In this document: positions 8,954 through 10,129 of the stretch, piece after piece
Position numbering within the stretch: position 1 is the stretch's first letter
How the letters are laid out: each line of letters opens with the position of its first letter
DNA from: Promethearchaeia archaeon
GTDB lineage: Archaea; Asgardarchaeota; Lokiarchaeia; Sigyniarchaeales; SOKP01
Length of the DNA stretch: 41,413 nucleotides
Reading direction: 5' to 3'
Assembly (NCBI GenBank): GCA_029856105.1
Contig: JAHQWH010000062.1
Coordinates: forward strand, 1 to 41,413
Made by a program: the position numbers and the translations under genes
The notes under the pieces: generated by a model
Databases searched by the model: none
The model's input: the letters and a program-made list of their open reading frames with translations, nothing else
Told to the model about the DNA's origin: nothing

Positions 8954-10129
8954 TTAAAAGCTAATCTGTGCTCCACAATTTCTACAAGCTTTAATTTCAT
9001 CGTTCATTTTATTTAAGCAAGGTTCGTGATAATAAGCTCCGCATTTTTCGCATTGAAACACTTTATAATCTCCTAAAAAGATGCTGTGACAAAAAGTACA
9101 AGATACATCGATTTTGTCGATTTGAGAGTCTGGAATTAATCTCATTCTTGTAGTGTTTATACCGCTTTCATCGATCAATTTTATTTTAGGCTCGTTGTCG
9201 GGCTTATCCTCGACTAGCTTTGATGCTGATAATGGAAGTTCTAACAAGAAGTAACAGAAAGGGCACCTAAAAACCATTTCTTTGTATTCTGATTTCTTAG
9301 CCCACATCGCTGTGCAAGAAAGGTGCATTGGACGCTCACACGATGGGCAGTATCTTCCTTCGCTAAAGAAATCCGCTCCCGTTAGTGGTGCTTTTACAGA
9401 GTGACAAATTTGGCATTTTTCTTGCCCCCTTTCTTTACTACTCATCATTAACCTAATATCTAACATGCTTGGTCTCCTCAGTGGTAAAGCGATATCGCTT
9501 ATCAGAGGGGGTAACTTATTTTTTTGATTTGGTCCAAAATAGTCAGTCGTTGTTTTACTCTCCTTTTTCGCCGCGAATGACCTTCCAGCATTTAACACCG
9601 CTTTTGAATTGTTAAAGAATCCAAATTTTCCGCCTGTAAGTCTTACAATCTTTTTTAAAATACTTTGAGAATAGTCTTCCGTTTTGCCTAGTTGGCAAGC
9701 ATCAATATATATCCCCAATCCTTTAGCAATATCGACTATTTTTTGAATTTTATTGCTAAGCTTTAATTTGTTGTCTGAGACAATAAAAATTCTATATGTT
9801 TTTCCGCCTAACTTCCGCATCTCCTTTACTAAGATTTGCAAAGAAAAGGCTAATCCTTCGTCTAGAGTACCAATCCCAGAGACATGAATTTTCTTTAAAG
9901 AGTTAATCAATTTTTCTTCTTCATGTGTAAAGGAACTCAGTTTCTTTATAGTTGCTCCAATAGAGATCACTGCAATTCTATCTTTAGGATCGATGGTAAA
10001 TTTCTCACTAATAAAGTTTTTAGCGCTTTCTATAGCGACAAGAAGTCGATTAGGCTTAAAGTCTTTTCTTAACATAGATCGAGAAGTATCTATTAGCACA
10101 ACGCAATCTTCTATCTTTATATCGTGCAA
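8954..10129 (-). CDS. vWA domain + two C4HC3 RING/PHD-like zinc fingers; TFIIH p44/Ssl1-like
   Basis: MIDAS-like DTSRSM followed by DFKPNRL; LTGG near the vWA end; fingers CQIC..CPSC..H..C..CPFC and CTFC..CEKC..H..C..CRNC. Confidence 0.8.
   Translation of the reverse strand: MHDIKIEDCVVLIDTSRSMLRKDFKPNRLLVAIESAKNFISEKFTIDPKDRIAVISIGATIKKLSSFTHEEEKLINSLKKIHVSGIGTLDEGLAFSLQILVKEMRKLGGKTYRIFIVSDNKLKLSNKIQKIVDIAKGLGIYIDACQLGKTEDYSQSILKKIVRLTGGKFGFFNNSKAVLNAGRSFAAKKESKTTTDYFGPNQKNKLPPLISDIALPLRRPSMLDIRLMMSSKERGQEKCQICHSVKAPLTGADFFSEGRYCPSCERPMHLSCTAMWAKKSEYKEMVFRCPFCYFLLELPLSASKLVEDKPDNEPKIKLIDESGINTTRMRLIPDSQIDKIDVSCTFCHSIFLGDYKVFQCEKCGAYYHEPCLNKMNDEIKACRNCGAQISF

Follow-up and report, generated by a model that had tools for sequence, protein, structure and literature searches.

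Positions 1 to 41,413 of contig JAHQWH010000062.1 (assembly GCA_029856105.1, a Promethearchaeia archaeon), the stretch of 41,413 nucleotides referred to here as the window, carry a gene for a protein in which a von Willebrand factor A (vWA) domain is followed by two C4HC3 zinc fingers of the RING type. The gene lies on the minus strand between those for an M20 peptidase and a methionyl-tRNA synthetase (MetRS; 211 bp downstream), which share its orientation (Table 1). An initial annotation, made from the letters alone, had likened the protein to the TFIIH subunit p44 (GTF2H2; Ssl1 in yeast), and proposed either a pre-TFIIH subunit of Asgard archaea or a RING-type E3 ligase related to the vWA group of p44, p34 and Rpn10. 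Databases name the members of this family only as 'VWA domain-containing protein', and no paper describing them was found in the full-text literature on Asgard or Lokiarchaeota together with Ssl1, p44, vWA or RING.

The open reading frame (ORF) encodes 391 residues from a TTG codon, a start that appears correct because the 94%-identical homologues are also 391 residues long and closely related ones begin, in the alignment, with MQDIKIED or MHDIKIED. All motifs that had been read from the sequence are present in it (LIDTSRSMLRKDFKPNRL, FTIDPKDRIAVISIG, KLINSLKK, RLTGG, the linker NKLPPLISDIALPLRRPS and GRYCPSC). HMMER alignment to p44 chains in the PDB also bears out the human p44 strings given for comparison, DGSRTMEDQDLKPNRL..FDQNPISQIGII..KHITSLKK, with the vWA opening and KHITSLKK aligning column for column; two further strings, ETGG and GYFCPQC, are not among the p44 alignment outputs. 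An AlphaFold2 model of the whole protein has a predicted local distance difference test score (pLDDT) of 82.8; in the linker behind the vWA domain this score is low at residues 192-205 and about 85 around residues 211-220, and A214 and L217 are kept at 90% or more in an alignment of 32 sequences (A1).

A vWA domain of the p44/Ssl1 and Rpn10 clade

The vWA domain belongs to the clade of eukaryotic p44/Ssl1 and Rpn10 and not with generic prokaryotic vWA domains, an affinity that the initial annotation had anticipated and that emerges from Pfam, PDB, profile and Foldseek searches as well as from two controls. Pfam matches are VWA_2 (50.3 bits), Ssl1 (41.5 bits) and VWA (33.7 bits); that to Ssl1 (PF04056) passes the gathering cut-off of 27 and covers positions 2-106 of the 193 in the profile, although VWA_2 scores higher, and Ssl1 is matched by 22 of 32 family members. 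When the single sequence is searched against the PDB, human p44 is the best match (E 2.7e-6), followed by Rpn10 and yeast Ssl1, and BatA/B-type domains are absent from the matches; a profile built from 32 members places Rpn10 first (7.6e-19), followed by p44 (3.3e-16), bacterial BatA/B-type domains (4e-12 to 2e-9) and yeast Ssl1 (1.6e-8). The VWA_2, Ssl1 and single-sequence p44 scores lie well outside what chance would produce. Structural comparison gives p44/Ssl1 as the top match: the first 25 Foldseek matches of the AlphaFold2 model are all p44/Ssl1, and the VIA Z for Rpn10 falls within about 1 of that for p44. The nearest named clusters in the ESM-Atlas are eukaryotic TF2H2 (0.91 and 0.90) and Tfb4 (0.81), which serve as a lead only, and no Rpn10 cluster is in the list.

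The controls were the nearest non-family proteins in a library of 1.8 billion proteins, a Dehalococcoidia protein with vWA and Prok-RING_1 domains and a small prokaryotic vWA protein. Both match mussel PTMP1 and BatA/B first and p44 not at all, so that the affinity for the p44/Rpn10 clade is specific to the family, and within the sampled genomes of the phylum the Pfam Ssl1 signal is confined to the vWA double-RING proteins. The 150 best matches in the library all look prokaryotic. Matches spanning residues 6-300 were suspected of being eukaryotic p44, but proved to be archaeal proteins with a degenerate vWA domain, one Prok-RING finger and a terminal zinc ribbon. The genome to which the window belongs itself encodes two tandem, distant and degenerate paralogues of about 466-482 residues (C112:76-2997, minus strand), each with a vWA-like domain without DxSxS, one C4HC3 finger, a long acidic linker and a terminal zinc ribbon, and the same architecture recurs in the library (P0216, P0217, P0221 and P0228).

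The leading place of Rpn10 in the family profile, its position as best PDB match of a second family protein of the same genome (P0272; 9.7e-6) and its structural score close to that of p44 could point to a docking factor of the Rpn10 kind, with the vWA domain as anchor to a complex that is proteasome-associated or of the JAB/Cdc48 type, where the fingers would read or write ubiquitin marks. We regard this as very improbable: Pfam matches listed to E 10 include no ubiquitin-interacting motif (UIM), no proteasome or JAB gene lies nearby in the loci examined, Foldseek and the single-sequence search favour p44, and Rpn10 is missing from the ESM-Atlas list.

Residues resembling a metal-ion-dependent adhesion site (MIDAS) are largely kept: among 157 family members D14 is found in 134, S16 in 127, S18 in 130 and D119 in 151, while the Thr position of the site is not conserved.

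Two RING-superfamily fingers

Both fingers are cross-brace modules of the RING superfamily, with the C4HC3 ligands and spacing already read from the sequence and now confirmed in the full protein: C239-x2-C242-x18-C261-x2-C264-x4-H269-x2-C272-x16-C289-x2-C292 in finger 1 and C344-x2-C347-x12-C360-x2-C363-x4-H368-x2-C371-x10-C382-x2-C385 in finger 2. All eight ligands of finger 1 are present in 157 of 157 members, and those of finger 2 in 147-156; in alignment A1, every zinc ligand is invariant except C371 (>=90%). Finger 1, for which the FANCL RING is the best fold match, has a triad resembling the E2 contacts of RING domains, formed by I241 (152/157), W276 (157/157) and P290 (147/157), and its R288 is nearly invariant. 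The archaeal srfp RING contacts E2 through hydrophobic loop residues and an invariant helix Trp (PMC5654768). Finger 2 has neither the Trp nor the Pro of the triad.

By sequence, finger 2 resembles the RING-H2 fingers of E3 ligases: its family profile matches Arkadia (8.7e-10), then RNF165, RNF4, Pirh2, Hrd1 and RLIM, with PHD and C1 domains lower, and 20 of 32 members have a match to Pfam zf-RING_2 (best 6.3e-8). The p44 RING is not in the best 60 of the 250 matches of this profile at E <= 1, all 60 having E <= 0.0014. By structure, the p44 RING is the top match among 48,161 chains in the wide VIA search, tied with RING-H2 E3s; Foldseek with the C-terminal model alone gives weak E-values (0.02 or higher), with RING E3s heading the list. 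The Pfam profile C1_4 (PF07975), that of the p44 C-terminus, is matched by none of 32 family members at E 0.01 and by nothing in the genome at E 0.1. Prok-RING_1 (PF14446; cut-off 29.1 bits) scores 22.6 bits on the window protein and 30.1 bits on P0272, and 19 of 32 members match it at E 0.01.

The initial annotation had also suggested a duplicated finger from which the two zinc modules of p44 could derive. Sequence comparison does detect a relationship between the fingers (hhalign probability 90%, E 1.5e-6), as would be expected from an ancient duplication or from common membership of one superfamily. The middle module is a binuclear FANCL-like RING; p44 has at that place an extended zinc finger (eZnF), a C4 finger that binds a single zinc.

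In another class of the phylum, a closed 2.8-Mb genome (G012) matches the finger-2 part of the family profile at 21 separate places, several of which form clusters on its contig C1 around 1.85-2.28 Mb, a large RING-finger expansion without the vWA domain.

Family range and genomic context

The homologues counted in Table 1 are proteins of comparable length with E <= 0.001; identity among the 120 that were listed ranges over 61-94%, a conservation comparable to that of XPD homologues (65-93%), and an exhaustive search recovers full-length representatives of about 40 clusters, the most distant of them 28% identical. The family tree has two major clades. The window gene falls in clade I, and its genome also encodes the clade II paralogue P0272 (contig C35; 397 residues, 29% identical), which has the vWA domain and both fingers. 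Among 301 genomes sampled from the phylum (family profile at E 1e-20, Pfam Ssl1 at E 1e-5), the family is confined to the class of the window, Lokiarchaeia/Promethearchaeota by source names, where it occurs in 76 of 77 genomes (families f1 68/68, f2 7/7, f4 1/1 and f3 0/1) with 2-6 copies per genome, and the two major clades coexist in genomes of f1 and f2. About 224 genomes of other classes contain no member by either profile; the five of them that were searched at E 0.001 give partial matches (RING-only or vWA-only) and never the full architecture. The broad Asgard range initially assumed thus narrows to one Asgard class. Labels such as 'Hodarchaeota', 'Thorarchaeota' and 'Hermodarchaeota' on 69-76% identical proteins were treated as unreliable, probably mislabels, because the contig labelled 'Hodarchaeota' shows full synteny with the window and the family occurs in none of the sampled genomes of other classes.

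Table 1. Window coordinates of the vWA double-RING gene, its parts and its flanking genes.
Feature	Position	Strand	Basis or remark
Whole gene, vWA + two C4HC3 RING-type fingers (P0001)	8954..10129	-	403 homologues, nearest 94% identical, equal length
vWA domain, residues about 7-190, p44/Ssl1-Rpn10 clade	9560..10111	-	
MIDAS-like DxSxS (D14-T-S16-R-S18), matching Asp D119	10076..10090	-	157-member family counts
Linker, residues 191-238, Pro-containing, conserved segment LPPLISDIALPLRRP	9416..9559	-	alignment, pLDDT
Finger 1, residues 239-292, C4HC3 cross-brace RING, FANCL/listerin type, triad I241/W276/P290	9254..9415	-	
Inter-finger linker, residues 293-343, partly disordered	9101..9253	-	pLDDT below 50 at 309-322
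Finger 2, residues 344-385, C4HC3, RING-H2-like by sequence, p44-RING-like by structure	8975..9100	-	
Methionyl-tRNA synthetase, downstream neighbour, C-terminal tRNA_bind domain	6694..8742	-	Pfam
M20 peptidase, upstream neighbour 27 bp off	10157..11515	-	kept in close relatives only

Two neighbours recur across families f1 and f2. MetRS stays adjacent to clade I genes in L013 (44% identical), L027, L032 and L034 (26-29% identical), and is absent from this place in L029. A Rag/Arf-like GTPase gene adjoins the clade II copy in five examined loci (that of the window's own genome, L015 and three f2 genomes), the two genes standing head-to-head where strands could be read (L002 and L015). At L002:817-3411 on contig C35, P0272 diverges from a GTPase of 402 residues (Gtr1_RagA 76 bits, Arf 72 bits). 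This arrangement suggests that the clade II protein and the GTPase may form a functional pair, by analogy with the RING-bearing Rag regulators of GATOR2/SEA.

A survey of 16 loci (210 kb) for ubiquitin-system, XPD or XPB genes near family members found a single match, an E1-like gene in the f4 genome G297, a member of the deepest-branching lineage. At L031:1082-3844 of that genome, the family gene directly follows a gene for a ThiF/E1-like protein of 271 residues, whose best match in the window's genome is an E1 from a ubiquitin operon, and is itself directly followed by a gene for a predicted membrane protein of 193 residues.

Farther out in the window, a likely surface protein of 1395 residues, rich in Asn, Ser and Thr and with hydrophobic segments at both termini, is encoded at 11676-15863 (+) next to a Roadblock/LC7 gene (15926-16279, -); both are syntenic in relatives, two of which (L009 and L011) also have a second, Roadblock/LAMTOR5-like gene. 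Five consecutive ORFs of 212-447 residues at 1334-6692 have no Pfam match at E 0.001, and their order is kept in the same two related contigs. Scans of the window for tRNA genes and Rfam families found nothing.

Elsewhere, the genome contains three UQ_con E2 genes, ubiquitin-like genes, E1 genes and two ubiquitin operons. The operons (C18:49009-53199 and C85:3826-7670) each encode a ubiquitin-like protein (Ubl), an E1-like protein, an E2-like protein and a multi-pass membrane protein that ends in a C4HC3 RING matching the finger profile of the family, and a third E1-like/E2 pair is found on C48 (7874-9481 and 13451-13972). With these E1, E2 and Ubl genes and the conserved E2-contact triad of finger 1, the RING E3 role put forward at the outset is plausible.

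The TFIIH partners of p44 are less well represented. One XPD homologue of 659 residues (P0273) is present; XPD is a widespread archaeal gene, and Pfam DEAD_2 matches in three archaeal control genomes as well. Many XPD homologues of the class are about 70 residues longer (728-741 residues; for example P0289, P0291 and P0317), and a few of those listed, mostly the longer forms, have a precomputed match to an RNA polymerase M/TFIIS-type zinc ribbon (PF02150). In this 92%-complete genome there is no match to p52/Tfb2, a search that matched in no control genome either, and the XPB-type C-terminal domain reaches 22 bits, below the cut-off. Pfam Tfb4 matches only P0272 itself (25-28 bits). Complex prediction for XPD (659 residues) with the vWA domain (192 residues) scored 0.00 against a mark of 0.32, a result that counts neither way on binding.

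These data bear on whether the family is a true counterpart of p44/Ssl1, whose vWA domain would bind and regulate XPD and whose window-type and C35-type lineages would pair like p44 and p34, through contact of finger 2 with a vWA domain, in a proto-TFIIH core. The top structural matches of the vWA domain and the terminal finger, the Ssl1 score above the Pfam cut-off, the ESM-Atlas lead, the XPD homologue, the coexistence of two paralogue clades and the weak Tfb4 match of P0272 all agree with such a role. It is nevertheless improbable. XPD is widespread, whereas the family is missing from all sampled genomes outside one class; p52 and an XPB above the cut-off were not found; none of the 16 loci links the family to repair genes or to that for XPD; Rpn10 ranks above p44 among the matches of the family profile; and the protein has no C1_4 match, no N-terminal extension of the p44 type and a binuclear RING where an eZnF would be expected. 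The proposal of a pre-TFIIH subunit is accordingly not supported by partner genes, neighbours or C1_4.

Likely function and comparison with known systems

On sequence grounds, the family is most likely, with a probability of about 0.5, a RING-type ligase or scaffold for ubiquitin or a Ubl, soluble, of housekeeping grade, present in several copies and restricted to Lokiarchaeia. The behaviour of the control vWA domains, the confinement of the Ssl1 signal to the family, the ubiquitin machinery of the genome, the E1-like neighbour in L031 and the class-wide conservation support this reading. For the parts of the protein, we infer a division of labour. The vWA domain, in which the DxSxS...D site is kept by most members, would serve to dock a substrate or partner protein, a role that such domains play in Rpn10, p44 and p34. 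Finger 1 would recruit ubiquitin-charged E2 through the surface formed by the Ile of loop 1, the Trp of the helix and the Pro of loop 2. Finger 2 is without the triad and is similar to the RING with which p44 binds the vWA domain of p34; it would probably bind a partner or substrate, or else a vWA domain belonging to a second copy of the protein.

Several observations weigh against a ubiquitin ligase. The matches of finger 1 to solved RINGs are individually weak (E 0.016-0.05), and the linchpin Arg/Lys is missing after the last Cys of both fingers, where Y/F293 and G386 stand. The C4HC3 spacing also suits PHD and C1 domains, and the PHD and C1_1 profiles are matched weakly, so that a non-catalytic binding role is possible. 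The conserved neighbours, MetRS and the Rag/Arf-like GTPase, do not point to ubiquitin, and no E2, E1 or ubiquitin gene lies next to the window gene or most of the homologues examined.

Several of the same observations feed the idea of a non-catalytic scaffold, in which PHD/C1-like fingers and a docking vWA domain would assemble complexes that act in signalling or are linked to translation, with no transfer of ubiquitin; examples of partners would be MetRS for the window lineage and the Rag/Arf-like GTPase for the paralogue. The spacing of four residues before the zinc-binding His is PHD-like, PHD_NSD is matched weakly as well, and the two neighbours are kept across f1 and f2. We consider a scaffold of this kind unlikely, if still a serious contender, as finger 1 has, almost without variation, the Ile/Trp/Pro triad that marks RINGs able to bind E2 (PMC5654768), both fingers find their strongest matches, in sequence and in structure, among active RING E3s, and the same finger type occurs within the ubiquitin operons of the genome. 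As a ubiquitin ligase, the family would add a new soluble class of E3 to archaeal ubiquitin biology.

To our knowledge, the non-helicase core subunits of TFIIH (p44, p34, p52, p62 and p8) have no recognised prokaryotic relatives, and we know of no settled origin for the Rpn10/p44/p34 vWA group. Here, a strongly conserved archaeal family has p44 as the top structural match of both its vWA domain and its terminal finger, its fingers resemble working E2-binding RINGs, and its host appears, from its gene content, to have a eukaryote-like ubiquitin system; the family is thus a candidate for how a ubiquitin-ligase scaffold could have entered TFIIH, and yeast Ssl1 reportedly retains E3 activity. In a bolder version, which we think improbable, the family would be the archaeal branch that survives of the kin of an ancestral protein from which p44 and p34, and perhaps the vWA domain of Rpn10, descend: a vWA-RING ubiquitin ligase whose two coexisting paralogue lineages pair RING to vWA, as p44 and p34 do, and which already docks on a helicase such as XPD. 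If this were true, the 'eukaryote-only' structural core of TFIIH would derive from an E3 of the Asgard ubiquitin system. With its range limited to a single class, the family makes a more modest case for ancestry. The nearest relatives of eukaryotes are generally assigned to a different Asgard class.

Among known systems, the C4HC3 RING variants of FANCL, listerin, NSE1 and SLX1 resemble finger 1 weakly in sequence, at the E-values given above, and stand in unrelated domain contexts. The srfp E3 of the ubiquitin operon in Caldiarchaeum and Asgard archaea shares the hydrophobic-loop and helix-Trp pattern of finger 1 (PMC5654768); srfp proteins, however, are small or membrane-anchored and operon-encoded, whereas the family protein is encoded away from the operons, is soluble and combines its RING with a vWA domain and a second finger. 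The prokaryotic vWA + Prok-RING_1 proteins (PF14446; Dehalococcoidia P0265), the nearest non-family relatives in the library, likewise have a vWA domain followed by a C4HC3 prokaryotic RING, but with a single finger, a vWA domain that matches the PTMP1/BatA type and not p44, and an origin outside the archaeal class. Rpn10 (PSMD4) shares the type of vWA domain, yet has UIMs and no zinc fingers where the family has two RING-type fingers and no UIM.

The TFIIH subunit p44 has a similar length and, as the initial annotation had it, a colinear arrangement of vWA domain, zinc module and C-terminal cross-brace finger, the last of these being the top structural match of finger 2. The last finger of p44, C-x2-C-x4-C-x2-C-x10-C-x2-C, has the spacing of finger 2, with Cys replacing His368 as fifth ligand. 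The family protein differs in being without the N-terminal extension, in having a binuclear C4HC3 FANCL-like RING at the middle position, where p44 has its eZnF domain (PMC6422496), in leaving C1_4 unmatched, and in a genome with no match to p52 and no XPB above the cut-off. As membership of p44 proper thus fails on three features, the type of middle finger, C1_4 and the partner subunits, a TFIIH-like role is a minority reading and a doubtful one. The resemblance to p44 is nonetheless genuine, in architecture as in fold, and among prokaryotic proteins none was found to come as close. In its succession of vWA domain, zinc module and RING, the family is the closest prokaryotic counterpart of p44/Ssl1 and, in evolutionary terms, a candidate relative of p44/Ssl1 and Rpn10.

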